A DNA stretch of 64,000 bases from Flavobacteriales bacterium. Its GTDB lineage: Bacteria; Bacteroidota; Bacteroidia; NS11-12g; UBA9320. A model generated the notes under the pieces. The model was given only the letters and a program-made list of their open reading frames with translations, ran no database searches and was not told where the DNA came from. How positions within the stretch are numbered: the stretch's first letter is position 1; each line of letters starts with the position of its first letter. A program made the translations under genes and the position numbers. Where the stretch lies: assembly GCA_020635355.1 (NCBI GenBank), contig JACJZW010000004.1, positions 129,226 to 193,225 of the forward strand, in the 5' to 3' direction. Shown piece after piece: positions 14,982-64,000 of the stretch.

Positions 14982-15266
14982 GCTTAACCACGATAGATGT
15001 ATATTATCATAATCTGTCATAGCGAGCATAGATTGGGATAACCGTTAACCTGGCTCAGTTGAACTGAGAATAGATTTGTCATTTTTTCTATTTTTAAACA
15101 GTTCCAAAAACCGATAAGGCTACTAAAACGTGTAGGTTACACGCGGGCAAAAAGCAAATGATTTAGTTTGAATAAGTTTTTACTTTAGAGCAAAAGAGAT
15201 AAATTTACTTGGTGTTGTTCTGATTTTATTGGCAATGTGCACTCAATTATCAATTTGTAGTTTGGC

Positions 15267-15884
15267 ATGAAGCTCTTTTCAATTTTTTGTCTTGTTTTTT
15301 TAGGGCAAATGGCTTTAGGACAAAACCACAACTTAGTACAACATAAAAAGTATTTTAATACAGAGCTGAAGCATTGGGTAGGAAGCTTTAACAATTTCAA
15401 GTTATCAGACTTTAAGCTTGTTGATACTTTGCACTTTGACACTAATTATCCTCAGGAAATTAAGTCGTTAGAGAAGTTCTTGTCCGTTTATAAGCCTATC
15501 ATTACATTTTCTGATGACAGTTCAAAGTTCATTGACATCTATAGTTATCAATTAAACCTTGAAAGGAACGGAAATCATTATCAGGCAAATCCAGACATAG
15601 ATCAAGCAATATTATTGTATGACGCCAAGGCAAAATATTGGAATAGAATTTTCTTTGGAACAAGTTCACAATGGATTGACGAAGTTTTATGGGTTTCAAA
15701 GACACAATTTATCTTAGTTGGTATTACGAAGTCAGAACAGGACAAAAAACAACCACTAGTACTTTTGGGCGACACTAATGAACAGTGGCTGATTAAATAT
15801 GTTGACCTTAATAAACTAACATTTCAAAACAATAATGGGTATTCATCATCAAAGTTGAAGCGAATTAGGATTGAAGGACTCTAG
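15267..15884 (+). CDS. hypothetical secreted protein
   Basis: Signal peptide MKLFSIFCLVFLGQMALGQ. AT-rich gene lying inside the direct-repeat-flanked insert. Confidence 0.5.
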   Translation: MKLFSIFCLVFLGQMALGQNHNLVQHKKYFNTELKHWVGSFNNFKLSDFKLVDTLHFDTNYPQEIKSLEKFLSVYKPIITFSDDSSKFIDIYSYQLNLERNGNHYQANPDIDQAILLYDAKAKYWNRIFFGTSSQWIDEVLWVSKTQFILVGITKSEQDKKQPLVLLGDTNEQWLIKYVDLNKLTFQNNNGYSSSKLKRIRIEGL

Positions 15885-16072
15885 AGTCACATGTTGCCTT
15901 GGAAGACGATTAACATTGGAACCATAATATCATCTCAAACCACTGAATTTGTAAAATGACATTAACGCACGGGCTTTCCAGACGGGTACCATCAAAATCA
16001 GATCAATCCGTTATAAACCGATAAGGCTTCCAGGGTAATCAAATAAGCAATAAACTAATAAGACACTAGCAA

Positions 16073-16732
16073 ATGGCGAAATGTTTCTTGATACTAATCA
16101 TACCATGGGTTCCATTCAAAGTAAAGGGATCGGTTTTTGCCAATAAACCCTATAATTATTCTGTTACTTTTCAATCATCCTCTTACTCCAAATTTGTAAG
16201 ATCGTTCGACTATCCGGAGTGGAAAATTAACCCTAAAACAATGTTGTTTGGTGGGAGAGCGCTATCTTTTACGATGGCTTTAAATGAAAGGTGGAATGTG
16301 GATATTTCTGGGCGCTCGATCGATAAATGGGCAGATTTGGATCTGCTTTTTATCAATGTTCCATTTGGAGTTGTTCCAGATAAACCGGCAGGGATTCTTG
16401 AGTATCAGTTGGAAATTGGGGTGAGTCAGGAGATTGAGCTAATCCCCAAGTTGAATCTATTACCAGAAGTGGGCATAGTTTTTCGTGAGATTACCTATGT
16501 GTACATGATAAGAATACCTGTGGAATATCTTACACTTAAACCGGAACCTCCTATTCATAATGCCGGTTTAAGGTATTCATGTTCCTTACTGTATTCTGCT
16601 GGTAAAAAGGAAAGAGTGCTTCTTGGAATTACTGGGGGATATTGCGATTTTAATGGTCTAGATACTTGGTTACTTGGATACCAGCTCGGAGTGCGATTTA
16701 ATGTTAAGAGAAAAATTGTGATTAATGAATGA
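16073..16732 (+). CDS. hypothetical protein
   Basis: 219-aa ORF in the same AT-rich insert; nothing recognisable in the sequence. Confidence 0.4.
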   Translation: MAKCFLILIIPWVPFKVKGSVFANKPYNYSVTFQSSSYSKFVRSFDYPEWKINPKTMLFGGRALSFTMALNERWNVDISGRSIDKWADLDLLFINVPFGVVPDKPAGILEYQLEIGVSQEIELIPKLNLLPEVGIVFREITYVYMIRIPVEYLTLKPEPPIHNAGLRYSCSLLYSAGKKERVLLGITGGYCDFNGLDTWLLGYQLGVRFNVKRKIVINE

Positions 16733-16970
16733 CTTGTAGGACAATCAGCTAACTATGCGTAGAATACATCGAGAACTACAAATGACTTTGTAGTAAAGGT
16801 GTGTTGTCGATTGGTGTAATTACTCTAACACTTCTAAAAACCCCCTTGTTATTATTCTGAACTAAGGGAGGTTGTGATTTCCGACACGTCGTGATTGAAA
16901 GAAGTAATTGATTTGATGGTGAATTTTGGCAAAATCTTCCTGAAGGTATAACGAATGCACCACCCCACTA

Positions 16971-17055
16971 AAAAACTTAAACGTTTAAAATTTCCACCCA
17001 ACGCGGTGAAATGAGGAATCTGTTGTATTCGTGATTTTCTTCGTTGAGCGATTGC
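16971..17055. repeat. ~85-bp direct repeat, copy B (immediately upstream of ssb; likely includes the ssb promoter/leader)
   Basis: aaaaacttaaacgtttaaaatttccacccaacgcggtgaaatgaggaatctgttgtattcgtgattttcttcgttgagcgattgc; it ends 23 bp before the ssb ATG. Confidence 0.7.
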
Positions 17056-50529: not shown

Positions 50530-50779
50530 GGGGCGAAGATAGGAATCGAATTGGATTGACGTGTCAGAGCACTCTGTGGATTATCCAGAATCCTCCAATC
50601 GGCATTTACCCCAGACCATGGTGTTGGATAAACCAGCATGGTTTCCAAGGGCAAACGACATTTATCTGCAGCGCATGAACGTGCAAAACATCTGCGTCCA
50701 TTTCTAAAACGACTGTTCTGGAAATCAGAGCGTCGCGCTGAAAAACAGCAAACGAAAAAAGAATCTGAGCAGGATTAAC

Positions 50780-52711
50780 CTACCTCGATTCGGATGTCAT
50801 TCCCATGTGCTTGCCCAGGAACGATTCCATCGCCCGATAGAAGTCGTAACGGTTTTCCTGGTTGTGGAAGCCGTGACCTTCGTTTTCTTTCAGCAGGTAC
50901 TCCACTTCCACACCGCGATCTTTCAACGCCTTCACCATCTGATCGCTTTCGGATTGCTTTACCCGCGGATCGTTGGCACCTTGTGCAATGAGCAAGGGCG
51001 CTTTGATTTTATCGGCATGAAGGGAAGGAGAATAGGCCGACAGCATGGCTGAATCCTGTTGAGGATGGCCAACCATTTCATGCAACATATCCAGGTATTG
51101 TGTCCAATAAGGCGGGATGGTTTCCATAAAAGTGAAGAGGTTGCTCACACCTACGTAATCAACCGCGCAGGTATAGAGATCGGGTGTAAAGGTTACCCCG
51201 GCCAGGGTGGCATATCCTCCGTAACTTCCACCGTAGATGGCAATTCTGTTTTGATCGGCAATGCCTTCATCAACCAACCAGCGCACGCCATCGCTGATAT
51301 CGTTTTGCATGGTTTGACCCCATTGTTTAAACGAGGCTTCCCAGAACTTACGACCGTAACCCGTGCTTCCCCGGAAGTTCATTTGCAACACCGCATATCC
51401 CCGATTGGCCAGGAACTGAACTTCAGGATTGAATCCCCAGTTATCGCGTGCCCATGGTCCGCCATGCGGATTAATTACCACCGGAAGATTTTTGGCTTCC
51501 ACGCCTTTAGGTAAGGTGAGGTAGCCGTGGATGGTGAGGCCATCCCGACTTTTATATTCAATGGGCTTCATCTCCGCCATGTGATCTTCGTTGATCCATG
51601 GGCTAAGATCTGCCAGTTTGTTCAGCTCTTTTGAGTTGGCGTCATAGGAGTAGAAAGATCCTCTGGAACGATCGGAATAGGTTCGAACAATCCAGTGATT
51701 TTCCGCTTTATCGTGGGAGGTGAGATACACTTCCACATTGGGAAGTTTTTGCTCGAGATCGGTGTACATATCGCCCACCGTTTTGTCGAGGTACTTCCGG
51801 TTCATTTTATCGCCGTACCAGTACACGGAAGTAAGAACCTTTCTCTTTTTGGAATAGCCTACACCTGTTACATCGTTCTGTTCATCCTGAAAGAGGGTTT
51901 CCAGTTCCTCGCCGGTATTCATATCTACCTTAACCAATGCCGCCTTATCGCGTCCGATGTTGGAAACACCGTACATCACATTCGAGTCGTTGAAGTCGAA
52001 CAACTCCGGTGAGAAAGATTCTTTGAAGTTGGTGGTAATCACCGTACGGAAGTTGGAATCCTCTGATGAACGGTAGAGGATGCTGGTATTCACACCATCG
52101 GTTACCGTAGCCACACGCAATCGGCCATCGTGATCCGTCATCCAGCCTGAAATGTTTCCGGGGTTCTCAGCAATCAGTGATTTTTCGCCGGTGTTGATAT
52201 TAAGGCGGTAGGCATCAAAGATTCGCGTATCCCGGCTATTCAATCCTACAATTACATGTTCAGGATCGTCTTCCAGGTCGTCAATGATTTGGGTTCGCAC
52301 CTTCGGGGCATAGGTGAGGGAACGGGCAGATCCGCTGTCGATGTCAACGGCATATAACGCGAAGTTTTCATCGCCTCCATTATCACGGGTGAAGAGGATG
52401 GTATGATCCCCTTTCCAAAAATAGCCTTGAATGTCGCGATCGGTTTCGGATGTTAATCGGCGAGCCGAATCGGCGCCCACTTCCTGAATAAACACGTTCA
52501 TCCGATCCTTGTACGGAGCTGTGAAGGCGTAGTATTTTCCGTTGTCAGAGAGTTTAAACGAACTTTTTTCCGAATTCTTGAAGAAGTCTTCCAACGCAAT
52601 GGTTGGTACTTGCTCATGGTTTTCCTTTTTCATAGTGCACGAGGCAGCTGATAGCGTCAGCAAACCTAACACAACCAAAGCATGGACTGTTTTAAACCGA
52701 TTCATTTTCAT
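50780..52711 (-). CDS. S9-family serine peptidase (prolyl oligopeptidase / dipeptidyl aminopeptidase-like) with N-terminal beta-propeller
   Basis: Lipoprotein-type signal, GGSYGGY nucleophile motif and a C-terminal alpha/beta hydrolase domain. Confidence 0.8.
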   Translation of the reverse strand: MKMNRFKTVHALVVLGLLTLSAASCTMKKENHEQVPTIALEDFFKNSEKSSFKLSDNGKYYAFTAPYKDRMNVFIQEVGADSARRLTSETDRDIQGYFWKGDHTILFTRDNGGDENFALYAVDIDSGSARSLTYAPKVRTQIIDDLEDDPEHVIVGLNSRDTRIFDAYRLNINTGEKSLIAENPGNISGWMTDHDGRLRVATVTDGVNTSILYRSSEDSNFRTVITTNFKESFSPELFDFNDSNVMYGVSNIGRDKAALVKVDMNTGEELETLFQDEQNDVTGVGYSKKRKVLTSVYWYGDKMNRKYLDKTVGDMYTDLEQKLPNVEVYLTSHDKAENHWIVRTYSDRSRGSFYSYDANSKELNKLADLSPWINEDHMAEMKPIEYKSRDGLTIHGYLTLPKGVEAKNLPVVINPHGGPWARDNWGFNPEVQFLANRGYAVLQMNFRGSTGYGRKFWEASFKQWGQTMQNDISDGVRWLVDEGIADQNRIAIYGGSYGGYATLAGVTFTPDLYTCAVDYVGVSNLFTFMETIPPYWTQYLDMLHEMVGHPQQDSAMLSAYSPSLHADKIKAPLLIAQGANDPRVKQSESDQMVKALKDRGVEVEYLLKENEGHGFHNQENRYDFYRAMESFLGKHMGMTSESR

Positions 52712-52835
52712 TCAATTTAGGTGCGAACGAAGGTATTGAATTGGTACAGAGAGTTGGTCGGATTGCGTTTGACGTGCAAAGATTCTCGACAAGCAAGGAG
52801 GGGGTGGGGAGTACCTTTCGGCTTAAAATTTCGAG

Positions 52836-53933
52836 ATGCGCGTTCCAACTCCGCGAATACCCAGTTTACGAATTAAGCGAAAGCCGTACTACCGACAATC
52901 CGCCAAGTCCGGCTTGCCACCCGGCACCTTGGTACACATTGGTGCCGAGCGGGAAGAACCCGTTACCATAACCTATGTGCGTTACAACGAAACGGAGTTT
53001 ACCCGGGAAGAGATAACGCTTGAACAACTGGAGGAGTTAAAAACTGATGGCGGTTCGATACATTGGATAAACGTGGATGGCTTAACCAATCCGGATGTCA
53101 TTGCGCGAACGGGAGAGAAATTCAATCTTCCGCATCTGATGCTGGAAGACATCATGAACACCGAACACATTCCTAAGGTGGAGGTGTTTCGGGATTTTAT
53201 CTTCTTTACTCTAAAGGCCCTGCACTTCAATACGAATTCGTTGGAGTTGGACACGGAGCAGGTGAGTTTTGTTCTCGGTAGAAACTACGTATTGTCCTTT
53301 CAGGAGCGCCCGGAAAATGTGTACGAAGGCATTTTGAGACGGATGGAAGAAGGGAAGTTCAAGAACCGTCCGGCTGATTTTCTGGTGTATCGGTTGTGCG
53401 ATGTGATTGTTGACAGTTACTATCAGGTACTGGAACACCTGGAAGAGAATATTGACGTGAGTGAGGAAGCCATTTTCGAACGTCCGGTTCCTTCGCAATT
53501 ACAGGATATTCAGAGTTTGAAGCGGGTATTGCTGGTACTTCGGAAGAGTATATACCCGTTGCGGGAAGCCATCAACCAGTTGCAAAAGCGCGACAATGAC
53601 TTGATTCACGCCGAGACCGTTCAATACTTTAAGGATTTATACGATCACACCGTTCACATTGTAGAGGCCATTGAAACCGCGCGGGATCTCAATTCGGGGC
53701 TGAAAGACATCTATCTGAGCAGTCTGAGCAATAAGATGAACCGGGTGATGCAGGTGCTTACCATTATCTCAACCGTGTTCATTCCGTTATCCTTTATCAC
53801 CGGCCTTTACGGAATGAATTTCGATCACATGCCCGAACTGCATTGGCAAAACGGATATTTTGGTATTCTGGCCATCATGTTTGCCGTAACCATGGTTCAA
53901 TTGTATTTCTTCCGAAGGAAAGGTTGGTTTTAA
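52836..53933 (+). CDS. corA: magnesium/cobalt transporter CorA
   Basis: GMNF motif (YGMNFDHMP), two C-terminal transmembrane helices and an N-terminal region KSGLPPGTLVHIG resembling CorA. The exact start is uncertain. Confidence 0.85.
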   Translation: MRVPTPRIPSLRIKRKPYYRQSAKSGLPPGTLVHIGAEREEPVTITYVRYNETEFTREEITLEQLEELKTDGGSIHWINVDGLTNPDVIARTGEKFNLPHLMLEDIMNTEHIPKVEVFRDFIFFTLKALHFNTNSLELDTEQVSFVLGRNYVLSFQERPENVYEGILRRMEEGKFKNRPADFLVYRLCDVIVDSYYQVLEHLEENIDVSEEAIFERPVPSQLQDIQSLKRVLLVLRKSIYPLREAINQLQKRDNDLIHAETVQYFKDLYDHTVHIVEAIETARDLNSGLKDIYLSSLSNKMNRVMQVLTIISTVFIPLSFITGLYGMNFDHMPELHWQNGYFGILAIMFAVTMVQLYFFRRKGWF

Positions 53934-54027
53934 GTGTAATGAGATCGTTATCAATGGCCTGTCGGCGCTGATTTTGCTTGCTTATATCGAGGTTATTGGT
54001 CAAATTTGAAATTCTCAAAGAAATAAT

Positions 54028-54558
54028 ATGAAAGGAAAAATTGTTTTGGCAGCTTTAGCCTCCGTGGTGATGTTTGCCTCATGCGATGAATTGGCAGATC
54101 TGGGAATTAAAGTAAACCTTGATCGATCCGCTGATTTCACCATCTACCCATCAACGGTAGCCGATACTACTTATACGGAAACAACCGATACCATGCGATT
54201 TGACGATATTGTTGGCGAGGTTCAGGCTTCGATTCCGGCATTTTCGAAAGAAAATCTACACGGATTTTTGGTTGACTCAGTGGTGTTTACCCTTCAGGAG
54301 CCACAATCTGGTAACTTTAATTGGGCAAAAAGCTCATCGGTAACCATCCGAAGTGCCAACCATCCTGCACCTGTTGTTGTGGGTGAACTTGCCGACTACC
54401 CAATGGATGTTATGAAAGTAACTGTTCCCGGTGGTGGTGTGGATTTCGCTGATCGTCTGAAGGATGATTGGTTCATTTTTGAAGTAGTCACTGCCAGTGA
54501 TGAAGTAATTTTGGTTGAACATAAGATCAACGGAAAATTCTTCATGAAGGTCTGGTAA
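54028..54558 (+). CDS. hypothetical lipoprotein (tandem paralog 1)
   Basis: Signal peptide + lipobox (MFASC). Confidence 0.55.
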   Translation: MKGKIVLAALASVVMFASCDELADLGIKVNLDRSADFTIYPSTVADTTYTETTDTMRFDDIVGEVQASIPAFSKENLHGFLVDSVVFTLQEPQSGNFNWAKSSSVTIRSANHPAPVVVGELADYPMDVMKVTVPGGGVDFADRLKDDWFIFEVVTASDEVILVEHKINGKFFMKVW

Positions 54559-54581
54559 GAATTAATCAATGAATAGATAAA

Positions 54582-54609
54582 AAGCCTCGACTTAGTTGAG
54601 GCTTTTTTT
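54582..54609 (+). terminator. rho-independent terminator between tandem lipoprotein paralogs
   Basis: AAGCCTC-gacttagtt-GAGGCTT followed by TTTTTTT. Confidence 0.6.
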
Positions 54610-54614
54610 ATGAT

Positions 54615-55154
54615 ATGAAACAACTCATTTTTAGCACAATTCTCCTTGCGACGTTGTTTACGTCAGCCTGCAAAAAACTAAACAAGATTGTTCAGTTTAA
54701 TTTGGACTATAAAACCCAGGTCACCATTCCTTCTACGACGGGGATTGACTTGCCGTTCAACGTGCTCACGCCGGATATTGAGACCAATGCCCAGTCCAGC
54801 TTTGAGGCCAATGATACCCGAAAGGACTTAATTAATTCCATTGAATTGTCGAAACTCACCTTAACGGTGAAATCACCCCAGGGTGAGGATTTTTCGTTTT
54901 TGAAATCGGCTAAAGTATTTATTGATGCCGATGGGTTGGACGAAAAGGAAGTGGCGGTTATTGATCCCGTTCCATCCAATGCCGGATCGGTGATTGAGCT
55001 GGTTCCAACAGGGGCTGATTTGGCACCGTATATAAAGGCCGATCAATTCACGTTAAAGGTGCGAACCATTACCGACGAGGCACTAACGCGCGATCATACC
55101 ATTGAGGTGTTTAGTCGGTTTCACGTAGAAGGCCGACTCATAGGTTCCGATTAA
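54615..55154 (+). CDS. hypothetical lipoprotein (tandem paralog 2)
   Basis: Lipobox FTSAC; similar domain layout to the 54028 gene (FTLQEPQSGNFNWAKSSSVTI vs LTVKSPQGEDFSFLKSAKVFI). Confidence 0.55.
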   Translation: MKQLIFSTILLATLFTSACKKLNKIVQFNLDYKTQVTIPSTTGIDLPFNVLTPDIETNAQSSFEANDTRKDLINSIELSKLTLTVKSPQGEDFSFLKSAKVFIDADGLDEKEVAVIDPVPSNAGSVIELVPTGADLAPYIKADQFTLKVRTITDEALTRDHTIEVFSRFHVEGRLIGSD

Positions 55155-55171
55155 CCCATCGGATACGTGCT

Positions 55172-55888
55172 CTACAGATTGAGCGTTGCGTTGTGGAAGA
55201 CGTTTTGAACATCTTCATCTTCCTCCAGCTTCTCGATAAGTTTATTTACCGTTTCGGCTGATTCACCGGAAAGCTCAACAAAGTTGTGAGGGATGCGTTC
55301 CTTATCCACTGATATAATGGTTACGCCCATAGTCTCGAGCATTTTCTGCATGTTGCCAAAATCCGAGAAGGAGGTGTATACCAGGGTCTCATCTTCCTGC
55401 TGCTCAATTTCTTCGAGTCCGCCTTCGATCAGTTCCAGTTCCAGTTCTTCCAGGTCATGGTCAGCGGGATCGATGCGGAAGATGCACTTGCGCTCGAAGA
55501 GGTAATCCAGCGAACCCGACTTGCCCAATTCGGCCTGATTACGGTTGAGGATGGCTCGAATGTTGGCCACTGTTCGATTGGTATTATCCGTAGCCGTTTC
55601 AATCACCACACCCACTCCGGATGGGCCCACAGCCTCGTAAACCACTTCCTCGTAATTACTTGAATCCTTCTCGCTGGCGCGCTTAATTGCGGCTTCCACG
55701 CGGTCTTTGGGCATATTCTCCGACTTGGCATTTTGAATGGCCACGCGGAGGCGGGAATTGTGTTCCGGATCCGGTCCGCCATCTTTAACCGCCATGGCGA
55801 TTTCTTTTCCAATGCGGGTAAAGGTCACGGCCATTTTACCCCATCGTTTCATTTTGCGCTCTTTCCGGAATTCAAATGCTCTTCCCAT
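55172..55888 (-). CDS. YebC/PmpR family protein, second paralog
   Basis: 238 aa, alignable by eye to the 9145..9903 yebC (KDRVEAAIKRAS, TDNTNRTVANIRAI). Confidence 0.8.
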   Translation of the reverse strand: MGRAFEFRKERKMKRWGKMAVTFTRIGKEIAMAVKDGGPDPEHNSRLRVAIQNAKSENMPKDRVEAAIKRASEKDSSNYEEVVYEAVGPSGVGVVIETATDNTNRTVANIRAILNRNQAELGKSGSLDYLFERKCIFRIDPADHDLEELELELIEGGLEEIEQQEDETLVYTSFSDFGNMQKMLETMGVTIISVDKERIPHNFVELSGESAETVNKLIEKLEEDEDVQNVFHNATLNL

Positions 55889-55933
55889 AATGTGTTTTCA
55901 AGTGGTGCAAAATTCGGTGGAAAGTTTGAGAAT

Positions 55934-55972
55934 AGGAATGGGGAATGGGGAATGAGGAATGAGGGATGGGGG
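55934..55972. repeat. heptanucleotide tandem repeat (RGGRATG x5-6), G-tract rich, in yebC-2 promoter region
   Basis: aggaatg gggaatg gggaatg aggaatg agggatg gggg, 46-84 bp upstream of the yebC-2 start codon. Confidence 0.65.
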
Positions 55973-56370
55973 ACGCCTTCGGAGGATTAGAGTTCAGAGT
56001 TTGGAGTTCAGGAATGGGACACCTTCGCTAAGGCTTCGGTGACTGAGAGAAATGACACACCTTCGCTGAAGCTACGGCGTGTGAAAAAAAACCCGGGTCA
56101 TGAAAGAAGTTTGAGTGGTTTAACCCTACTCATTTCTATTGTAGGTTGTAGTAAGCAGCACAACCCGGGTGTTGGCTATGGCACCGCCTCACGGCGGTAT
56201 TCCATTGATCTTCTATGTCTTGAACGTTGAAGCAAATGTGTTTGCACCAATCGTTAAAATTTTTGTCAAAAGTTTGTCGGCTTCAGAAACGGGGCACGAC
56301 AACGCAGATTGAACAGAATTTGAGGGGCAAATCCATCACCTTTCCGGGTGAAGTTGGAACACAATCACGT

Positions 56371-56439
56371 TCACGATTTAAGCGTGCAAAACACGAATTC
56401 TTCAATGAGTTCATGGTATTGGCGTTGAAATTTATTCAT
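56371..56439 (-). pseudogene. 5' remnant of lipoprotein paralog (MNKF... then frameshift/stop after 22 codons)
   Basis: The minus strand reads ATG AAT AAA TTT..., preceded by the same conserved upstream module and hairpin element as the intact paralogs. Confidence 0.4.
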
Positions 56440-56490
56440 TGGTATACAGTCAGATGGTTAAGTTGTTGGTTTAGGATGGTTTGGAATCAT

Positions 56491-56530
56491 CCGTAGACTT
56501 CCTGCCCACGGGGCTAGGCTAAGTCTACGG
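56491..56530. repeat. hairpin repeat element copy 1 (CCGTAGAC-24 nt-GTCTACGG)
   Basis: ccgtagacttcctgcccacggggctaggctaagtctacgg; an 8-bp perfect inverted-repeat stem. Confidence 0.7.
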
Positions 56531-56664
56531 AAGGGTGTCGACTTAAGACTGTTTTATGGAGTTAATTTGGTGCAAGAAACTCGGCGTAGTGTTCCATCCG
56601 CCGAAGAAGGCGAATGGCTAAATCGTTCGTGGATCTTGCTAAAGAGTGGTTAAATCAGCGGATC

Positions 56665-56705
56665 CGTACATATCCTACGCATGGGCTGGAAGCTAAGTCT
56701 CAGGA
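56665..56705. repeat. hairpin repeat element copy 2 (degenerate)
   Basis: ccgtacatatcctacgcatgggctggaagctaagtctcagg. Confidence 0.5.
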
Positions 56706-56736
56706 ACCTGTGGTGCGATTGAAGTCAATGCAGGTT

Positions 56737-56781
56737 TATTCACCCATCAATTCATAATCCTTAGGATTATCCAGGATCGAT
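56737..56781 (-). pseudogene. 3' remnant of lipoprotein paralog (encodes ...SILDNPKDYELMGE*)
   Basis: Near-identical to the 3' ends of the genes ending at 60546 and 62367. Confidence 0.45.
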
Positions 56782-57225
56782 GGTATAGGTTAGTTTTACC
56801 AGACCATATTTCGGTGATAATATTATTAAGCGATTGAGTCTGATTTATTATTGAATATGTATTCAGAGTTACTACGATAGACAGCTGAGACTGTTAAGTA
56901 CCCCTGATATGGTAAATCCTTCTTCATTTGAACACAATCAAATACCGTCCTATCATATAACTGTATCCTTAAACACATTTTTGACTAAAAGAAACCAGAA
57001 CCGTTGGTTAACCATAACCTTTGCTTAACTTTCGAAAAGTGTTGGTCCGTTTTGAACTGAATCAAATCTATGACGTAGGGAGTCCTCTCCTCTTTCATTC
57101 GGAGTTTTTAAAACTTTGTGTACACGTTCTTTACACATTGGTTTTAGACAAGCTTTTACCTCAAATCCAAATTGAATGAACAATCAGTTCTCCCAAAAAA
57201 ATAGGAGGAATTGTCAATATTTCCG

Positions 57226-57417
57226 TTAAACGATGCAGTATCTTGACGAATACAATTCGTCAAAAAGTTCAACTACATCTTGCTCAGTCGGTTGAATCTT
57301 ATGTGACGCAGGTAATACCCAAAATTGTGGAGGCCCGTCATCCACGCCGCAGGAGGAGAAACTGCCAAGACAAAGACTTATGAGGAAGTATAGAATGATA
57401 TGTTGAGTAGAAGACAT
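57226..57417 (-). pseudogene. N-terminal remnant of lipoprotein paralog (63 codons)
   Basis: Translation ...LCLGSFSSCGVDDGPPQFWVLPAS...EQDVVELFDEL matches the SSCGSDENPNNECPPQFFELQPSVEDMIESL region of the intact paralogs. Confidence 0.5.
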
Positions 57418-58290
57418 AGGTAGGTTATGGTTTTTCTAATGCTATAACACAGCGGTTAGAACCAATGCCTGTTCACTTAATCATTTCGTACCCATAATCG
57501 GGATCAAACCAAAAGATCAGAAAAGTCGGCTTTAAGATGGAGTATATCCTCTGCTTCTATAATGATATCTCCGTAAGCTGAAAATTACCCCCCCAAATCG
57601 CGAAAGGTTTGGTTCCTATTGTATGTTGGGGTTATATCCAATGCTAGAATAGTCACCAATTCCAGAAAGACATTGCCTGCAAAATTCACATAGTACAAGT
57701 CTTCGCAAAGAAAACGTAAACTAAAGATTCCTGAGCCCTCATTTAAATTTGTACTTCAAATGGTGAAGAAACCTTCGTATTGTGATAAAGTGCTGTTTTT
57801 CTTTCAATGTGAACTATCTCGTTGATCTCCCTGGAATGGTTGATTTGCTTCGTTCAAGGGTATCTATTTCATTTCTTAACTAAGTAATAGGTTGAGGTGT
57901 CTACAACCATCCCATTTACCTGTCTTTTTTCCAAATACCAGGGAATCTAGGGTATTAAAACATGAAAGTGACAAGTCGGTCAAGTGTATTGGGTTTGAAC
58001 CTTACATAGAAATGTATGATATTTAGTGTGGGATCCTCTTTACAGGGAATGGATTCTAGAAACAAAGATAAAAACAACTGAGTATACAGGTTTTTCATGA
58101 TTTAGGTTGAACCAGAATACTTACGAGTTGTTTTATTGTCCATTGTTTTTTTGGTTGAATTCTCCATTGTTCTGCTGTACCTTTAAAAGTTGGTATGTTT
58201 TACTCAGTATGAAAAATTATAATCAAGGGAGTTAGGGTAGATGTGTTTGGGACGATATGGCACATTTTATAGTGTTGTAGTTTACCTTTT

Positions 58291-58893
58291 GTGCAACTTC
58301 CGTCCTGCACATCAGATGACGGCAAGACGGATTGCGAAAATCTGGAATTTAAATTTCAAGGTACATTGGATGACCTGATTACCGATCTTTTAGTCGGCAT
58401 GCTGTTTGAACGTAGTTTAGATGGCCTGTTGGTTGACACTGTTTCTCTTAAATTGGAATCATTTGAAACCGATTTCATTCATCTTCACCACTGTAATAAT
58501 GCTACCCGTTCGATGGAGTTGAAATGGCTCCAGTACAGGTGGTCAGCGGATTTAGAAGATATATCTCTTGCTTTTATTAAATCGGGATCAACGTCAACAG
58601 ATGCCTTTGCCACCTGGGGGGAACTCGACCTGTATAGTCGAAATTTCTTCCATAAAAGCGGGTATACGATTGTCTTCCAAAAGGATACTTTCTTTGATTG
58701 TAGGAGTTTTGATGATGTGTTGTCTCCGGTCAATAATATTGTGGGTTTAGGGAAGTATTTTGATTCAAATGCCAACGTCCAATTCAAGCCAAACACCTCG
58801 AAGGCCTTTGTATACCTCAAGCGGGAATCCGGACTTGTTTTGCTGAAACGGATAAATCCGGACGGGGTTATAGAATCGTATAAGCGAATTTGA
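58291..58893 (+). pseudogene. lipoprotein-family ORF lacking signal peptide (possible 5'-truncated paralog, GTG start)
   Basis: Begins (V)QLPSCTSDDGKTDCENL, a lipobox with no preceding signal peptide, and resembles LLSCKDDASDTNCEETI of the 59721..60422 gene. There is no ATG; an in-frame stop lies 7 codons upstream. Confidence 0.35.
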
Positions 58894-58966
58894 ACGGTAT
58901 CTCAATTAATTTGCATGAGTTCGAATAATTAGATCCTTGGTTAAATAAGGTTGTTAATTTCGTGTT

Positions 58967-59005
58967 CCGTAGACATCCTACGCACGGGCTGGGCTAAGGC
59001 TACGG
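58967..59005. repeat. hairpin repeat element copy 3
   Basis: ccgtagacatcctacgcacgggctgggctaaggctacgg. Confidence 0.7.
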
Positions 59006-59701
59006 AGAGTTAGAGTGGGATGAGGATAAACGTCTGATTCGAAACATATCCTTATCAAATTTTATATTGAATTGCGTTGAGATGGATGCTCCAACGAGCC
59101 AGGTATTCAATCGGCGTTGCAGAACGTTGTATTGAACAAACATCCCTGCGGATAACCGATTGTTGGGGAAGAAATAATATCTGGGAGAAAGGTTAATGGC
59201 CATCATACTTACGAGCTGACCAGTTCGGTAGTGTACTTGAAGTGGCTCGATGGGGTATTTTATTTCATGCGCGGTTGTCATTGACCTTCTTCCATACGAT
59301 GCCCAGATTGGAATTTTCAGATGTTCCAGAGCATTCAGGGAGTAACCTAAACCAATGAAATGCGTTTTGTAAGCCCACGTCACCGGCCGACTGGTAACTT
59401 TACCATTTGGCCAGTTCTTGTAATAGTTCGTGTTATATAATTCGGAATATTCCTTTTGTCTTATAAGGCAAAAGAACAGCCCATTAGGCAAGTGATACTT
59501 GAATGAGATACCCCGATTGGTCCAGGTTGGGACTGGAGGAACCGAATGCTCAAAAATGGTAGCTAAATCATTGTTGTAGTCTCCGGAGTGAGTTAACAGT
59601 TCGATTTCGAACGAAGTGGTTGATTTTTGTGCCCATAGTATAGTGTTGGAATACATAAATCCAACGAACGCAATTACAAAATGGAGTAGGTAATTGGGCA
59701 T
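59000..59701 (-). CDS. hypothetical secreted protein (Tyr/Asn-rich, possible beta-barrel)
   Basis: Start taken at the signal-peptide-like MPNYLLHFVIAFVGFMYSNTILWAQ; the ORF track extends it to 59773. Confidence 0.45.
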   Translation of the reverse strand: MPNYLLHFVIAFVGFMYSNTILWAQKSTTSFEIELLTHSGDYNNDLATIFEHSVPPVPTWTNRGISFKYHLPNGLFFCLIRQKEYSELYNTNYYKNWPNGKVTSRPVTWAYKTHFIGLGYSLNALEHLKIPIWASYGRRSMTTAHEIKYPIEPLQVHYRTGQLVSMMAINLSPRYYFFPNNRLSAGMFVQYNVLQRRLNTWLVGASISTQFNIKFDKDMFRIRRLSSSHSNSP

Positions 59702-59720
59702 TTTATAGAGGATTGGTTGT

Positions 59721-60422
59721 TCAGTTAATCCGTTCGAGATAAGCTGGTGTTGCATCTTGTTCAACCATCTCAAGATGTATAAGTCCTACCTTGTTGCTAA
59801 AATACCCAGTGATAGTTAAGTTGTTGCCAAGAGGTAAATTATCATATTCCCCCCATTGATTAAGCACAGACATGAAACTCGAGATAGGCCCATTAGACAT
59901 TTTTATACCAAGATAAAATGGATAACACTCCTCGTACACATGGTTGGTTATTACTATGGAAGTGTCTTTTGAAGGCCCAATGTTTCCGGTTTTATAAGTG
60001 TAAAAGTGTGGATATCCGTGGTAGGTTACTATGAACATATGCCAAATATCAGAGGCCATCGCATCAACCTCGAATGAATCAGAACCATCAGTCGAAATGT
60101 ATTTGAAATTTATTCTTTCAACGAACAAAACATCCTTATCCTCGCATTCATGAAGTAACGCTATGGTTCTACTTCTGAATTCAGGAAATGTTTTAGCGCT
60201 AAATACATTTGTAAACTTTATCGTGTCGGTTTTTAAACCGATTATTTTCCTAAATACGAGTGTGTCCTTGAACATCAATGCCGGGATGAGGGTATCTGCA
60301 ATTCGTTCACTAAGCAAAATTGTCTCCTCACAATTTGTGTCGCTTGCATCATCCTTGCAGGATAGGAGGAATGAAGCTAATGCAGCCAAGGAGGCGAGTA
60401 GGATAGGATTTAACTTAAGCAT
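59721..60422 (-). CDS. hypothetical lipoprotein (LLSCKDD lipobox; distant member of the paralog family)
   Basis: Signal peptide + LLSCKDD. The C-terminal ITGYFSNKVGLIHLEM resembles FSGYYKRGVGLLKMTY of the paralogs. Confidence 0.55.
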   Translation of the reverse strand: MLKLNPILLASLAALASFLLSCKDDASDTNCEETILLSERIADTLIPALMFKDTLVFRKIIGLKTDTIKFTNVFSAKTFPEFRSRTIALLHECEDKDVLFVERINFKYISTDGSDSFEVDAMASDIWHMFIVTYHGYPHFYTYKTGNIGPSKDTSIVITNHVYEECYPFYLGIKMSNGPISSFMSVLNQWGEYDNLPLGNNLTITGYFSNKVGLIHLEMVEQDATPAYLERIN

Positions 60423-60478
60423 TCAATTCACAGTCTTCCAAAAATACGTAGATGGTGCAAATGTGCTACAGGCGTGTT

Positions 60479-60521
60479 CCGTTGACATCCTTCGAACGGG
60501 CTGGGCTAATTCTTCGGAACG
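60479..60521. repeat. hairpin repeat element copy 4 (degenerate stem)
   Basis: ccgttgacatccttcgaacgggctgggctaattcttcggaacg; lies 25 bp after the upstream gene stop and 57 bp before the 60422 start. Confidence 0.55.
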
Positions 60522-60545
60522 TGTGGCGGGATTGATCACTGCGGT

Positions 60546-61205
60546 TTATTCACCCATCAACTCATAATCCAACGGATTATCTTCATCCAGGTAGTACGTC
60601 ATTTTGAGTAATCCGACCCCTCTTTTATAATAACCTGAAAAAGGGACATAACCATTCTTAAGATTTAAATCACCAATGGAGTTAAATCCCTCTTTTGATG
60701 AGATAAAGTGTCCCTGAAGTGCTAATATGTTAAAAAGTTTAAAACAATTAGATTCGGTACGATTGTACAACTGTAATTCTGTTAACGAATTGGACCAAAA
60801 AAATGTACTTGCTGTGGTTAGGGCATATGACTTACGTACGACAAAAAGGACTGGTGAGCCTCTATATTGCACCAATTCAACACTAAATGAATCTTCGCCA
60901 TTTTCAGACCGAAAGAATGTACGCAAGCGTTCATAAAAGAGATTTGTCCTCGCACAAGGTGCTTCATCAAATTCAATGGTATCTCTTATTGAACCTGAGT
61001 TGAGGAATAGAACCGTGTCAATTTTGCCGTATTGGGATACCCGATAATAAATTGAATCTCTTGTTTGTAAACTTTCAATTATATCCTGAACGGAAAGATG
61101 AAAACCAAAGAACAGAGGTTGACATTCATTACTGGGAGTTTCATCCGGTCCGCAACTTGGAAGGATCAACGCGAGTCCACAAAGGAGCCATAGAAATTTG
61201 TTCAT
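60546..61205 (-). CDS. hypothetical lipoprotein, paralog A
   Basis: Start placed at MNKFLWLLCGLALILPSCGPDE (signal + lipobox); the ORF track extends 60 codons upstream to 61385. About three-quarters identical by eye to the 62367..63023 product. Confidence 0.6.
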   Translation of the reverse strand: MNKFLWLLCGLALILPSCGPDETPSNECQPLFFGFHLSVQDIIESLQTRDSIYYRVSQYGKIDTVLFLNSGSIRDTIEFDEAPCARTNLFYERLRTFFRSENGEDSFSVELVQYRGSPVLFVVRKSYALTTASTFFWSNSLTELQLYNRTESNCFKLFNILALQGHFISSKEGFNSIGDLNLKNGYVPFSGYYKRGVGLLKMTYYLDEDNPLDYELMGE

Positions 61206-61265
61206 TGGATAGATTGTTAAACAAGTATAGTGTTTACGGTTGGTTAATTGTAGGATTCGGTAATC

Positions 61266-61296
61266 ATCCTCCACACGGGTCGGGCTAAGGCTAAGG
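61266..61296. repeat. hairpin repeat element copy 5 (5'-truncated)
   Basis: atcctccacacgggtcgggctaaggctaagg. Confidence 0.5.
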
Positions 61297-61351
61297 AAAG
61301 TGGGGGAGCAGGAAATAGTAATGCCAGTCATCAGTTGTTCGTATTTTTGGA

Positions 61352-62332
61352 ATGAAAGCGAATCGTCTAATGAGGTTACAGGCATACTACATTCTGATGA
61401 TCACATCAGTGATTTGTTTTCAGCTCCTTTCATGTAAGGATGATTCTAACCTAAATAGCTCCACGTGCACTCCCTTTGACGAACTATATCCTAAATCGGG
61501 TAATTCAGGTAGTACAACCTTTACCTATAGGTACCCGCTCCACTCCAAACCAATGTTTTCCGAATCTCCCTCAGCGAAGTTTTATCTTCTGTTGAATGAT
61601 ACGGTCCAAAGGTATCGTTTGATAGCTATGCGGGACGGAGAATCTGAACGGAGAGAGACTGATCTGACGTTGCCTTATGATGTTCAGATCACAATGAATT
61701 CACGAGAAGAATTTGCCTACATCTTAGTTGGAAGTCTATTTGTTGTGGATACCCTTGGGAGCCCGCTTCATTCGTTCAATGACGAGGGGTATTATAGGTC
61801 TCCATGTTGGTTTGATGATTCAACGATTATTTGTGAATACTCCGAAACCGGTGGCGTACCATACCACACAATAAGGATTCATTTGAATTCAGGGAGAAAG
61901 GACACATTAAATTTTCCTTTCATGAAGGGGAGAATGTCGGTTGATAAACTTCACATTGCCATTGATGTTGATCGCATGGGAGAAGTACTTGCCATTTATG
62001 ACAAAGAGGGTATGCAACGTAAGTTGTTAAAATTTGCAACAGATGACGGACGAAATAACCTGATTGCTTTTGAGTGGTTAAGTTCAAATGAAATCATCTA
62101 CATTCTGGAGTCGGATGGTGTCTTTATGTACGATATAAACACCGACAGACATACCAAATTGCTTTCTCACTGCAGATATGAACGGTATGATGAACTAAGT
62201 GTTGATCCTGAACAAAAACAACTATTATTGATCAAGCGTACAACCAGCTATCTCAGCGAATTTCATCACATCATATCTACAGAGATTTATCATTATAATC
62301 TGCTGTCCAAAGAGTTAAGGAAGGTATTCTAA
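61352..62332 (+). CDS. hypothetical lipoprotein, possible beta-propeller fold (LLSCKDD lipobox)
   Basis: Signal peptide + LLSCKDDSN. A perfect TAnnTTTG-type motif (TATTTTTG) lies 11 bp upstream, so the internal Met at 61370 is an alternative start. Confidence 0.55.
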   Translation: MKANRLMRLQAYYILMITSVICFQLLSCKDDSNLNSSTCTPFDELYPKSGNSGSTTFTYRYPLHSKPMFSESPSAKFYLLLNDTVQRYRLIAMRDGESERRETDLTLPYDVQITMNSREEFAYILVGSLFVVDTLGSPLHSFNDEGYYRSPCWFDDSTIICEYSETGGVPYHTIRIHLNSGRKDTLNFPFMKGRMSVDKLHIAIDVDRMGEVLAIYDKEGMQRKLLKFATDDGRNNLIAFEWLSSNEIIYILESDGVFMYDINTDRHTKLLSHCRYERYDELSVDPEQKQLLLIKRTTSYLSEFHHIISTEIYHYNLLSKELRKVF

Positions 62333-62366
62333 TCATGCGACTATATCCGGAGAATGATCAAGGTTT

Positions 62367-63023
62367 CTAGTCCATCAACTCATAATCCAGCGGATTATCC
62401 TGATCCAGGTAAAATGTCATTTTAAGCAGGCCAACACCCCTTTTGTAATAACCAATAAAAGGGACATAACCTCCTTTGAGATTTAAGTCACCATTGGAGT
62501 TAAATCCCTCTATTGATGAGGTAAAGTGCCCTTGATGTGTTAACATGTTGAAAAGTTTAAAACTATTGGATTCTGTGCGATCGTACAACTCTAAATCTGT
62601 TAATGAATTGGTCCAAAAAAATTGACTTGCCGTGGTTAGAGCATAAGACTTACTTACCACAAAAAGAACAGGTCCGGACTTATCTTGCACCAATTCAACA
62701 CTAAATGAATCTTCGCCATTTTCAGATCGAAAGATTGTCCGAAATCGTTCATAGAATAAATTCTCTTCAGCACAGAACCCATCTGCAAAACTCAAAGTAT
62801 CTCTTTTTGAACCTGAGTTGAGGAATAGAATGGTGTCTGTTTTGCCGTATTGGGAAACACGATAGGCAACGGAATCTCTTGATTCCAAGCTTTCAATCAT
62901 ATCCTCGACAGATGGCTGCAACTCGAAGAATTGAGGGGGGCATTCATTATTTGGATTTTCATCAGACCCGCAACTTGAAAAGATCAACGCGAGTCCACAA
63001 AGGAGCCATGGAATTTTGTTCAT
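62367..63023 (-). CDS. hypothetical lipoprotein, paralog B
   Basis: Start placed at MNKIPWLLCGLALIFSSCGSDE; the ORF track extends it to 63122. Confidence 0.6.
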   Translation of the reverse strand: MNKIPWLLCGLALIFSSCGSDENPNNECPPQFFELQPSVEDMIESLESRDSVAYRVSQYGKTDTILFLNSGSKRDTLSFADGFCAEENLFYERFRTIFRSENGEDSFSVELVQDKSGPVLFVVSKSYALTTASQFFWTNSLTDLELYDRTESNSFKLFNMLTHQGHFTSSIEGFNSNGDLNLKGGYVPFIGYYKRGVGLLKMTFYLDQDNPLDYELMD

Positions 63024-63103
63024 TGGATAGATTGTTAAACAAGTATAGGGTTTACGGGTGGTTAATGGTAGGATTCGGTAATCATGCTTCGCGCAGGCAA
63101 GTT

Positions 63104-63142
63104 CCGTAGACATCCTGCGCACGGGCTGGGCTAAGTCTACGG
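63104..63142. repeat. hairpin repeat element copy 6 (best copy)
   Basis: ccgtagacatcctgcgcacgggctgggctaagtctacgg. Confidence 0.7.
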
Positions 63143-63429
63143 AACGTTTGAATTGCCATGATGGGCTGATATAAATCAGGTTGACGCATCCGGTTTGGTA
63201 TTTATACTTTGAATAACTAAACTTGGATTCTAAAGCGAAGTCGACTTATGAACGTCTCTTTAAGCAGGAGAAAGTGGTGCATCGCTGGTAGGTTGAACTA
63301 AAAGTATTACTAGCCGATCAGGTTGTGTAGGATGATCCACCTTTGCGGTTAACGCATAGGTCCCGATCAGTCGGTTTATTACATCGAACATGCCCATCAC
63401 AGACCTGCTGCTGTTGTTATCAGATAGTC

Positions 63430-64000
63430 ATGACGCATCTTTTTCCGACCCTTGGAAATCGGGTTTTCCATTTAACCACGGGTGTTTTTATCTTTTTAAT
63501 GGGGTATAGTAATCCCATCCAGGCACAACAGGTAGAATTACCGGAAGAGGCTTCTCAAAGTTGGTGGGAATCTGTGACCAAAGACATCGAAAGCCGGGAG
63601 TATCATTTCTCACAAATGGACGAGCAGCATTACCGTTGCCCCAATCGGGCCAACAACCTGTTGGCCGTGGTTGAGCCAGGAAACTTAACACTGAGTCCGC
63701 ACCGGGATTCAACGGCTAACTGGTCGTTAAGACTGGACTTGAACGGGATTTATGCCGATGGCATCAGACTGTATGGCACGGAGAATATTCCGGTGAATAA
63801 GGTGGTTATGGAGGATGCGCGACTTGTTTTTGATCATACATACGTGCAGGAAGAGTACATCAACACCAAAGAAGGTGTGCGACAAAACTTCATCTTGAAG
63901 CATGGTCCGACCGATGCAACCGAGATTGAAGTGCGATTAAACGTTGCCGGTCTTATCCCCAACAAGGTACATGATACCGAAATCCATTTGTGCCAGCGCC
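63430..64000 (+). CDS. secreted protein, N-terminal part (continues beyond window end)
   Basis: ATG at 63430 opens a frame with no stop through 64000: MTHLFPTLGNRVFHLTTGVFIFLMGYSNPIQAQQVELPEEASQSWWESVTKDIESREYHF... It is absent from the ORF track because no stop falls inside the window. Confidence 0.5.
   Translation, partial: MTHLFPTLGNRVFHLTTGVFIFLMGYSNPIQAQQVELPEEASQSWWESVTKDIESREYHFSQMDEQHYRCPNRANNLLAVVEPGNLTLSPHRDSTANWSLRLDLNGIYADGIRLYGTENIPVNKVVMEDARLVFDHTYVQEEYINTKEGVRQNFILKHGPTDATEIEVRLNVAGLIPNKVHDTEIHLCQR

Follow-up and report, generated by a model that had tools for sequence, protein, structure and literature searches.

A family of small lipoproteins and its apparent decay in a low-GC island of a Flavobacteriales genome

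Genes of the island

Near one end of a 64,000-nucleotide stretch of DNA from a Flavobacteriales bacterium there lies an island of small genes with a GC content of 38-42%, set in DNA of 45-50%. The stretch (the window, in what follows) is part of a metagenome-assembled genome (MAG) deposited at NCBI with locus tags H6608_* (assembly GCA_020635355.1, contig JACJZW010000004.1, forward-strand positions 129,226 to 193,225), and the island occupies about 56.0-63.2 kb of it. A preliminary description of the locus, made from the letters of the window, recognized two intact lipoprotein genes and at least three decayed fragments of the same family. The two intact copies are indeed there, but the count of the family was too low. 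In clean sequence the island contains six intact paralogues (LpA, LpB, LpC, LpD, LpE, and Lp233) of one family of small lipoproteins, and of these Lp233, LpE, and LpD had been overlooked. It also encodes two secreted proteins that lie outside the family, Lp326 and orf233. Read along the minus strand, the order is LpB, Lp326 (on the opposite strand), LpA, Lp233, orf233, LpE (on the opposite strand), LpD, and LpC, and then YebC. The features are these (consensus refers to the other assemblies of the region, described in the next section):

62367-63023, minus strand: LpB, intact, 218 aa, with signal peptide and lipobox (...FSSC, then GSDE); match to the family profile, E 2e-68
61352-62332, plus strand: Lp326, a predicted lipoprotein of 326 aa (…LLSCKDDS) unrelated to the family, between LpA and LpB
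60546-61205, minus strand: LpA, intact, 219 aa (P0001)
59721-60422, minus strand: Lp233, an intact divergent member, 233 aa (…LLSCKDDAS); family profile, E 1.3e-59
59000-59701, minus strand: orf233, a secreted protein with a type-I signal peptide, outside the family
58209-58893, plus strand: LpE, 228 aa in the consensus; family profile, E 1.6e-57 (consensus) and 3.4e-50 (window copy)
57442-58098, minus strand: LpD, 221 aa, intact in the consensus; family profile, E 2.3e-42
56737-57417, minus strand: LpC, 223 aa, intact in the consensus; family profile, E 3.8e-64; 33 frame-shifting indels in the window
56371-56439, minus strand: open reading frame of 22 codons beginning MNKF, spurious
56222-58400, no strand: low-quality stretch, specific to the H6608 assembly as against four mutually identical independent assemblies
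63499-64000, plus strand: start of an FG-GAP repeat protein of 1402 aa with a weak C-terminal sorting domain of the type IX secretion system (T9SS); continues past the end of the window

LpA and LpB are the two minus-strand genes of the preliminary description, both open, and their signal peptides and lipoboxes read as quoted there. A protein identical to LpB in all 218 residues (P0025) is found in an ENA assembly. LpA has exact counterparts on an NCBI contig, JAGQVZ010000001.1 (GCA_020437705.1, labeled 'Bacteroidetes bacterium'), and on an ENA scaffold. NCBI annotates it in a form of 279 aa, which starts at an upstream ATG in a frame that reads through a repetitive extragenic palindrome (REP). 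Lp233 is similar to LpA at E 3.6e-7 by tblastn, and an identical Lp233 is present on 9 independent contigs. LpE first surfaced as a weaker tblastn match on the plus strand, at 58276-58839.

The gene calls of a sister MAG (contigs L001 and L020, again GCA_020437705.1) are badly truncated despite open frames: 173 of 218 aa for LpB, 136 of 326 for Lp326, 161 of 221 for LpD, and 63 of 223 for LpC. It seems that the low-GC genes of the island are mis-started by gene finders.

The noisy stretch

Are LpC, LpD, and the 5' end of LpE, all broken in the window, also broken in nature? The region is covered by four other assemblies: the sister MAG (L002) and short-read contigs from three SRA runs (L004, L005, and L006). 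Over positions 50533-64000, the window differs from the sister MAG outside of 56222-58400 by only two single-nucleotide polymorphisms, near 52.3 kb, while inside those limits there are approximately 103-105 substitutions and 109-110 indels of 1-6 nt, some 210 events. In the sister MAG, this region holds three open frames, all with lipoprotein signal peptides: LpC (223 aa), LpD (221 aa), and, on the opposite strand, LpE (228 aa). The three short-read contigs carry the same intact genes and are 100% identical to one another and 99.98% identical to the sister MAG. When L002, L004, and L005 are each compared with the window, the 97 mismatches and 117 gap openings are identical in all three comparisons, and therefore it is the window that is the odd one out. 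None of its disruptions is reproduced in independent data.

Records of clustered proteins tell the same story. LpD of 221 aa is found on 9 contigs, and LpE on 5 as a call of 228 aa and on 7 as one of 219 aa; the window's own version of LpE, with 200 aa, is encoded by no other contig on record. This product (58291-58893), window-specific changes included, is the NCBI protein MCB9240732.1 (H6608_06360; P0027), which rules out that the window was mutated deliberately or synthetically. The damage is distributed as follows:

56737-57417, LpC: 35 substitutions and 35 indels, 33 of them frame-shifting
57442-58098, LpD: 21 substitutions and 35 indels, 33 of them frame-shifting
58209 onwards, LpE 5' end: 9 substitutions and 13 indels, 12 of them frame-shifting
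56222-56732, spacer: 27 substitutions and 25 indels, non-coding

The kinds of events are as telling as their number. Substitutions (103) and indel events (110) are in a ratio of about 1:1, insertions (56) balance deletions (54), 52 of the 110 indels adjoin homopolymers, and the substitutions are asymmetric with respect to strand, with 49 exchanges between C and T as against 13 between G and A. The events are evenly distributed, 4-16 in every 100 alignment columns, up to abrupt edges at 56222 and 58400. These edges disregard gene boundaries, and REPs and spacers within them are damaged as densely as genes. Because the even spread, the sharp bounds, and the equal density in genes and spacers match the error of uncorrected long reads, I consider it highly probable that 56222-58400 is uncorrected single-molecule sequence left in the H6608 assembly and not a product of natural decay.

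One might suppose instead that the decay is real, that the H6608 strain has lost LpC, LpD, and the 5' end of LpE as pseudogenes, whether because selection was relaxed or because the strain recombined with a donor whose copies had already rotted. The damaged version does stand in a public MAG, the island is low in GC and close to a transposase, and there is natural allelic variation at LpC in another sample. However, it is a great deal to expect that real decay should leave flanks of about 5 kb and 6 kb identical to those of other assemblies on either side of a stretch that is about 9% diverged, that it should produce more indels than substitutions, as many insertions as deletions, half of the indels next to homopolymers, that it should strike spacers and REPs like genes and stop without regard to gene boundaries, and that its result should appear in no other assembly. 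The natural variant looks quite different. It is found on a contig of 1.6 kb (L015; ENA ERZ27309371 k141_44194), where LpC has 15 substitutions and a single-base gap at the edge of the alignment, and its frame is open. This allele has 11 amino-acid changes, all of them within the first 45 residues, and downstream of the gene there is one deleted block of 22 nt (split into six gap openings). On balance, real decay of the three genes strikes me as quite improbable. The preliminary description was right about the expansion of the family, six members strong, but the copies that it took to be in ongoing decay have open frames in the sister MAG and in the three independent contigs of short reads, and their damage has the profile of sequence error.

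The supposed fragments can now be put in their places. The N-terminal piece of 63 codons at 57226-57417 and the C-terminal piece ending in ...DYELMGE* at 56737-56781 both exist in the window, the latter 90% identical in DNA to the 3' end of LpA over 39 nt. By tblastn, residues 98-219 of LpA match 57104-56739 (E 7e-8), and residues 15-137 of LpB match 57360-56995 (E 4e-5). Since these matches span the interval, the N-terminal and C-terminal pieces are the two ends of a single gene, and 56737-57417 is one full-length divergent paralogue, LpC, with frameshifts, and not two decayed fragments. In the sister MAG the interval is a single open frame for a lipoprotein of 223 aa, whose identity with LpA and LpB is 41-43% in alignments of 215-217 residues (E 1e-51).

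The third supposed fragment, the MNKF stub, does not belong to the family. Its likeness at the protein level amounts to four residues. At its site the consensus reads ...CCAATGTGAATAAATTT..., that is, ATG and then TGA, and the window is without 2 nt there (the event at 56437). The 22-codon frame is spurious because this deletion, in the noisy stretch, creates it. An additional 'fragment', absent from the earlier list, is what is left of LpD in the window, an N-terminal frame of 47 codons at 57955-58098 (MKNLYTQLFLSLFLESIPCKEDP...) in which the signal peptide and lipobox are still recognizable. LpE has its first 190 nt or so corrupted, leaving a frame of 200 aa from a GTG at 58291.

Two other candidates were considered and set aside. 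Diversity-generating retroelements make adenine-specific substitutions without indels, and a stretch with indels does not fit them as its cause. A seemingly truncated LpD of 147 aa (P0030; Logan SRR28385526, L048 1953-1990) is an artefact of a unitig end, its last 38 nt or so repeating, in inverted form, what lies 30-70 nt further along in the true gene.

All this matters to users of the record. The H6608 MAG, with this poor stretch of about 2.2 kb, would mislead anyone who scans it for pseudogenes, contingency loci, or variation between strains.

The lipoprotein family

LpA and LpB are identical at 164 of 217 residues (76%) with no gaps, as the preliminary estimate of three-quarters had it. 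Their DNA is 83% identical over two blocks of 300 nt that span the gene and about 75 nt upstream, and the repeat unit extends into the REP. The synonymous divergence (dS) between them is 0.64 and the ratio of nonsynonymous to synonymous divergence (dN/dS) is 0.23, and therefore both copies are maintained. Such values point to a duplication of long standing whose products are under purifying selection, and not to a pair that is recent or degenerating.

The other copies are far more diverged. Pairwise identity in the family runs from 20 to 76%, and apart from LpA and LpB only from 20 to 42%. An alignment of the six shows an invariant S-C lipobox and, at position +3 or +4, an acidic residue, together with conserved cysteines, G198, and the shared motifs DS..YR, G..DT..F, ER, and G(L/V)(L/V)K. 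A profile built on the family matches the six members at E values from 2e-42 to 7e-70. The models of Pfam, NCBIfam, PADLOC, and PHROG give no match to any of them. Word-indexed protein searches, with LpA alone or with a profile of the six paralogues, returned only the source species' own proteins. Among 1.84 billion cluster representatives, a full HMMER scan picked out 23 proteins of 161-255 aa at E <=1e-3, five of them from the source species and 18 of them distant relatives of 172-255 residues. The distant relatives, except those truncated at the N-terminus, all have a lipobox followed by acidic residues (SCKDD, GCKDD, SCNDD, and similar). Inspection of the alignments, by which signal peptides were judged, places S-C after a hydrophobic stretch of 12-20 residues in the six paralogues and in the non-truncated relatives (18 examined). 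The family is thus uncurated and very narrowly distributed, a set of lineage-specific, predicted surface lipoprotein paralogues of a sort ordinary for Bacteroidota. The preliminary description held that no function could be assigned from sequence, and here the profile searches agree with it, having found no characterized family.

What can be said of the role of these proteins begins with their N-termini. A lipoprotein export signal (LES) has been experimentally defined in Bacteroidetes, K-(D/E)2 or a polar residue and (D/E)2 adjoining Cys+1 (PMC5080379). After the cysteine, Lp233 has CKDD, LpD CKED, LpE CTSDD, LpB CGSDE, LpC CGVDD, and LpA CGPDE, so that each has two acidic residues, at +3/+4 or +4/+5, with LpA and LpC lacking the polar or basic residue. 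Because this pattern resembles the LES, one may expect the family members to be lipid-anchored at the cell surface, on the outer face of the outer membrane.

The predicted structure carries the matter one step further. AlphaFold2, given LpA and an alignment of 24 sequences, produced a model with a mean confidence (pLDDT) of 88 and a predicted TM-score (pTM) of 0.81; a model from 5 sequences (pLDDT 48) was discarded. The better model has an N-terminal helix and then about eleven beta-strands. For the mature domain, approximately 190 residues with conserved cysteines, the prediction is an antiparallel beta-barrel, closed or half-closed, with the helix at its N-terminus. Among solved folds, barrels like nitrobindin and FABP and barrels like LolA and LprG come nearest. 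Foldseek found nothing at E <1e-3, giving weak matches only, to LolA, LprG, and ependymin, with TM-scores of 0.2-0.3, and the viral fold library gave no match. Going by the fold class, I propose that the most likely role of the proteins is to bind, at the cell surface, either a small hydrophobic ligand or another protein as partner, and this is a guess.

The island was also described as typical of contingency or surface-variation loci. According to such a view, surface lipoproteins are switched, or shuffled by recombination between copies, and there are indeed several paralogous genes with similar 5' regions to work on. The means of variation, however, are not in evidence. Tandem Repeats Finder identified no array in or before the intact family genes, and neither homopolymers nor short tandem tracts occur in genes or leaders. 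All that it found in the island is a unit of 17 nt (2.2 copies, 56993-57029, in the corrupted LpC) and one of 11 nt (1.9 copies, in Lp233), the others being upstream of YebC. No inverted repeats of the invertible-promoter type and no long ones around promoters were found, just four weak long-range inverted pairs, 71-86% complementary, and the island has no site-specific recombinase. Homologous exchange would require copies less diverged than these, LpA and LpB excepted, and the dN/dS of 0.23 speaks for maintenance. Finally, gene order and content are identical in all assemblies compared, a near-clonal population. Phase or antigenic variation is very improbable indeed.

A different idea comes from the neighbors. 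LpB is divergent from the FG-GAP gene (L001 4110-8318, mapped to the window by alignment, with domains from Pfam and NCBIfam), whose product bears the weak T9SS tail. Elsewhere, the relative P0010 is divergent from an M4 peptidase of 1415 aa with a type-B T9SS domain, and P0015 (L018) is directly followed, on two contigs, by a protein of 308 or 332 aa with a type-A T9SS domain. Might the lipoproteins be inhibitors, chaperones, or anchors of the secreted cargo encoded next to them, just as potempins inhibit the KLIKK proteases of Tannerella forsythia? Potempin A is even the sole PDB sequence hit of the family profile. That hit, however, has an E value of 0.07 and covers residues 1-42, which is the signal peptide only. 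Two of the five contexts have no T9SS neighbor, five contexts are too few, and here six paralogues lie beside one cargo gene. Moreover, T9SS cargo genes are common in environmental Bacteroidota. The association, in 3 of the 5 contexts, is only suggestive, and partnership with T9SS cargo is an unlikely explanation, though not a negligible one.

The two remaining contexts are those of P0009, whose neighbors are uninformative, and of a contig from another organism (L017 2199-8627; ENA ERZ650152 NODE_81) where one island has four family members amid other small genes without annotation, and next come a tyrosine integrase and the KwaA/KwaB (Kiwa) defense genes. Multi-copy clustering in variable islands, in wastewater Bacteroidota, looks like a trait of the family. 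The neighbor of P0010, 180 aa in length, is not a family member (hhalign probability 23%).

Lp326 and orf233 were considered as conserved partners of the family and ruled out: no homologues of either are found beside distant family members in their loci. Lp326 has no match in Pfam, NCBIfam, PDB, PADLOC, or PHROG, and orf233 none to any family or to PDB. At its C-terminus (window 59000-59060) orf233 has a sequence resembling the beta-signal of outer-membrane proteins, ...QFNIKF (...GASISTQFNIKF), and its frame extends 18 codons into the REP at 58951-59017. It looks as if the original stop was displaced by insertion of the REP. A weak tblastn match to orf233 (E 0.014) lies within a second low-GC patch at 15000-17000 (34-38% GC), which has open frames at 15267-15884 (205 aa) and 16073-16732 (219 aa) with N-terminal hydrophobic segments. 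Closer to the island, on the plus strand, two small lipoproteins (176 and 179 aa) are encoded side by side, at 54028-54558 and 54615-55154. They form a paralogous pair (25% identity, E 1e-9) that is unrelated to the family of the island and without a Pfam match. Rfam recognizes no RNA family in 55000-64000, and scans for sigma-70 promoters and for terminators showed no enrichment over shuffled sequence.

REP elements and comparison with known systems

The island has six copies of a palindromic REP of about 57 nt, all in the same orientation, with a core of GTTCCGTAGAC, 22 nt, and GTCTACGGAAC. By nhmmer there is none in positions 1-56000 of the window, and every spacer in the island longer than about 120 nt holds one. 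All are listed on the plus strand:

56481-56539, plus strand: inside the noisy stretch; nhmmer E 1.5e-15
56647-56717, plus strand: just 3' of the LpC stop, inside the noisy stretch; E 8e-16
58951-59017, plus strand: between the convergent orf233 and LpE; E 8e-20
60462-60530, plus strand: between LpA and Lp233, stem degenerate; E 9e-19
61242-61308, plus strand: between LpA and Lp326, stem degenerate; E 1e-16
63094-63154, plus strand: upstream of LpB, with a perfect stem of 11 bp (GTTCCGTAGAC...GTCTACGGAAC); E 1e-19

The best-preserved copies form a hairpin of 11 bp with a z-score of about -3 (-3.3, as DNA, for the copy at 63094). About 4-5 kb past the end of the window, on the sister contig L001 (3340-3891), there is a Y1/HUH transposase of 183 residues with an HVH motif. 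It scores 98.2 bits with NF047646, the model for REP-associated tyrosine transposases (RAYTs; cut-off 80), and 29.7 bits with the IS200 model (cut-off 55). The same REP flanks the gene on both sides (L001 3165-3219 and 4003-4055), each time with a partial second unit, and none of the copies in the approximately 72 kb of genome examined is farther from it than about 13 kb. Judged by sequence, transposase and flanking palindromes match a REPtron.

Pattern scans of genomes and metagenomes find this REP family only in the source species. The strict pattern has 0 matches in a genome collection that does not include the source genome, and looser matches to a 19-mer (7 and 13 single ones, in unrelated taxa) were dismissed as chance, the REP model aligning only over the searched word. 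Nor are the spacer palindromes attC sites of an integron, as there is no integron integrase and the palindrome flanks a Y1 transposase. Upstream of YebC, at 55930-56085, the heptamer GGAATGG occurs about 5 times (55935-55971), and two tandem units of 38 nt follow (56010-56085), whose core, GCTAAGGCTTCGG, is weakly like the 3' half of the REP.

Repeats in spacers and a nearby enzyme bring to mind the rAID-1 clusters, described as skewed in GC and as having a conserved recombinase and repetitive spacers like those of integrons (bioRxiv 10.1101/471110). By analogy, the island might be one of immunity or defense, in which lipoproteins neutralize competitors' toxins in the periplasm or at the surface and cassettes are captured at the spacer repeats. 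The skewed GC, the small genes, and the repeated spacer elements are all here, and among the relatives there are the four members beside a tyrosine integrase and Kiwa and the member (P0015) a few genes from GmrSD. The enzyme, however, the only one of recombination near the array, is a Y1 transposase and not a XerD-type recombinase, and the genes are of one paralogous family on both strands rather than of mixed immunity families. No match to an immunity family was found in Pfam, NCBIfam, or PADLOC, no cognate toxin gene is seen, the content is the same in the near-clonal assemblies, and the REP family is confined to the source species. I would rank an immunity island somewhat below the partnership with T9SS cargo, itself unlikely. 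A bolder version, that the island is a cassette-accumulating system with REP hairpins and the RAYT as its machinery of capture and duplication and with immunity or receptor-masking lipoproteins as cargo, is more improbable still than either of these or real decay of the three genes.

The explanation that best combines these observations, with a probability of roughly 0.8, is that the decay is artefactual and that the island consists of six maintained surface beta-barrel lipoproteins among numerous REPs. Within it, surface binding in general ranks above defense by immunity, above partnership with T9SS cargo, and above phase variation. In this model, the copies would have arisen by old duplications and been retained by purifying selection, the proteins, as beta-barrels anchored at the surface, would bind a hydrophobic ligand or a partner protein, and the divergence between copies (20-76% identity) would give them different specificities. 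The REP-containing spacers would be candidate sites for recombination.

Several points weigh against this explanation. The artefact verdict comes from the comparison of assemblies and the spectrum of errors, and the assemblies compared are near-clonal, so that the invariance of copy number and order among them, the comparison called for at the outset, is a weak test. The contig with the natural LpC allele (L015) has, upstream of the gene, an unrelated sequence of 76 nt where LpD is expected. This different junction, the sole hint of genuine structural variation, may reflect a true variant in the structure of the island, or else the contig, a short one, may be chimeric. Surface exposure is read from the resemblance of a motif, and LpA has P before its D-E, in place of K, Q, or S. 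The matches to known folds are modest (Z <=7.5, and no Foldseek match at E <1e-3). The REPs at 60462 and 61242 fold no better than shuffled sequence, and the REPs are no more than candidates for a part in the duplications.

With the decay set aside, the biology that is left is a rare family of predicted surface beta-barrel lipoproteins, which deserves a family description and gives no sign of a new mechanism, its genes interleaved with the REPs of a RAYT close by, a combination for which there is little documentation in Bacteroidota.

How does all this compare with what is known? With the LES lipoproteins (PMC5080379), the family has in common a signal peptide and the lipobox cysteine, after which come a residue that is polar or basic and two acidic ones, as in CKDDA, CKEDP, CTSDD, CGSDE, and CGVDD. 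It differs in that LpA, with CGPDE, departs from the minimal motif that was tested and in that its own place at the surface is a prediction. Lipoproteins of the SusD/SusE type are unrelated to it in both fold and sequence. The calycin and LolA-like binders (nitrobindin/Rv2717c, FABP-like proteins, LolA, LprG, YmcC, and BDI_3050) have an antiparallel beta-barrel of a size similar to that predicted here, and several are themselves lipoproteins, but the sequence identity is 3-9%, with no relation at the level of sequence. Potempins (Tannerella forsythia; PDB 8b2m) are likewise small lipoproteins of Bacteroidota encoded next to proteins secreted through the T9SS. Their likeness to the family, though, is only in the signal peptide, potempin A has 118 residues, and there is no protease neighbor in the window.

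A REPtron consists of a RAYT flanked by a palindrome that is also scattered in nearby spacers (PMC3733652, PMC3116915), and this is what is found here, with a stem of 11 bp that contains GTAG. In the present case, however, GTAG is part of the stem and does not form an unpaired tag, the loop, of 22 nt, is long, and the copies are clustered and in a single orientation. A survey from 2013, in which GTAG REPs turned up in Proteobacteria, Cyanobacteria, Chloroflexi, and the PVC superphylum, had none from Bacteroidetes (PMC3733652).

Like the rAID-1 arrays of gut Bacteroidales, finally, the island is a low-GC cluster of small genes with repeated spacers and an adjacent enzyme that breaks and rejoins DNA. 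It departs from them in its Y1 transposase, its single protein family on both strands without likeness to known immunity families, and the absence of observed turnover. Were the cassette idea true all the same, the island would be the analogue, built around an HUH transposase, of those integron-like arrays.

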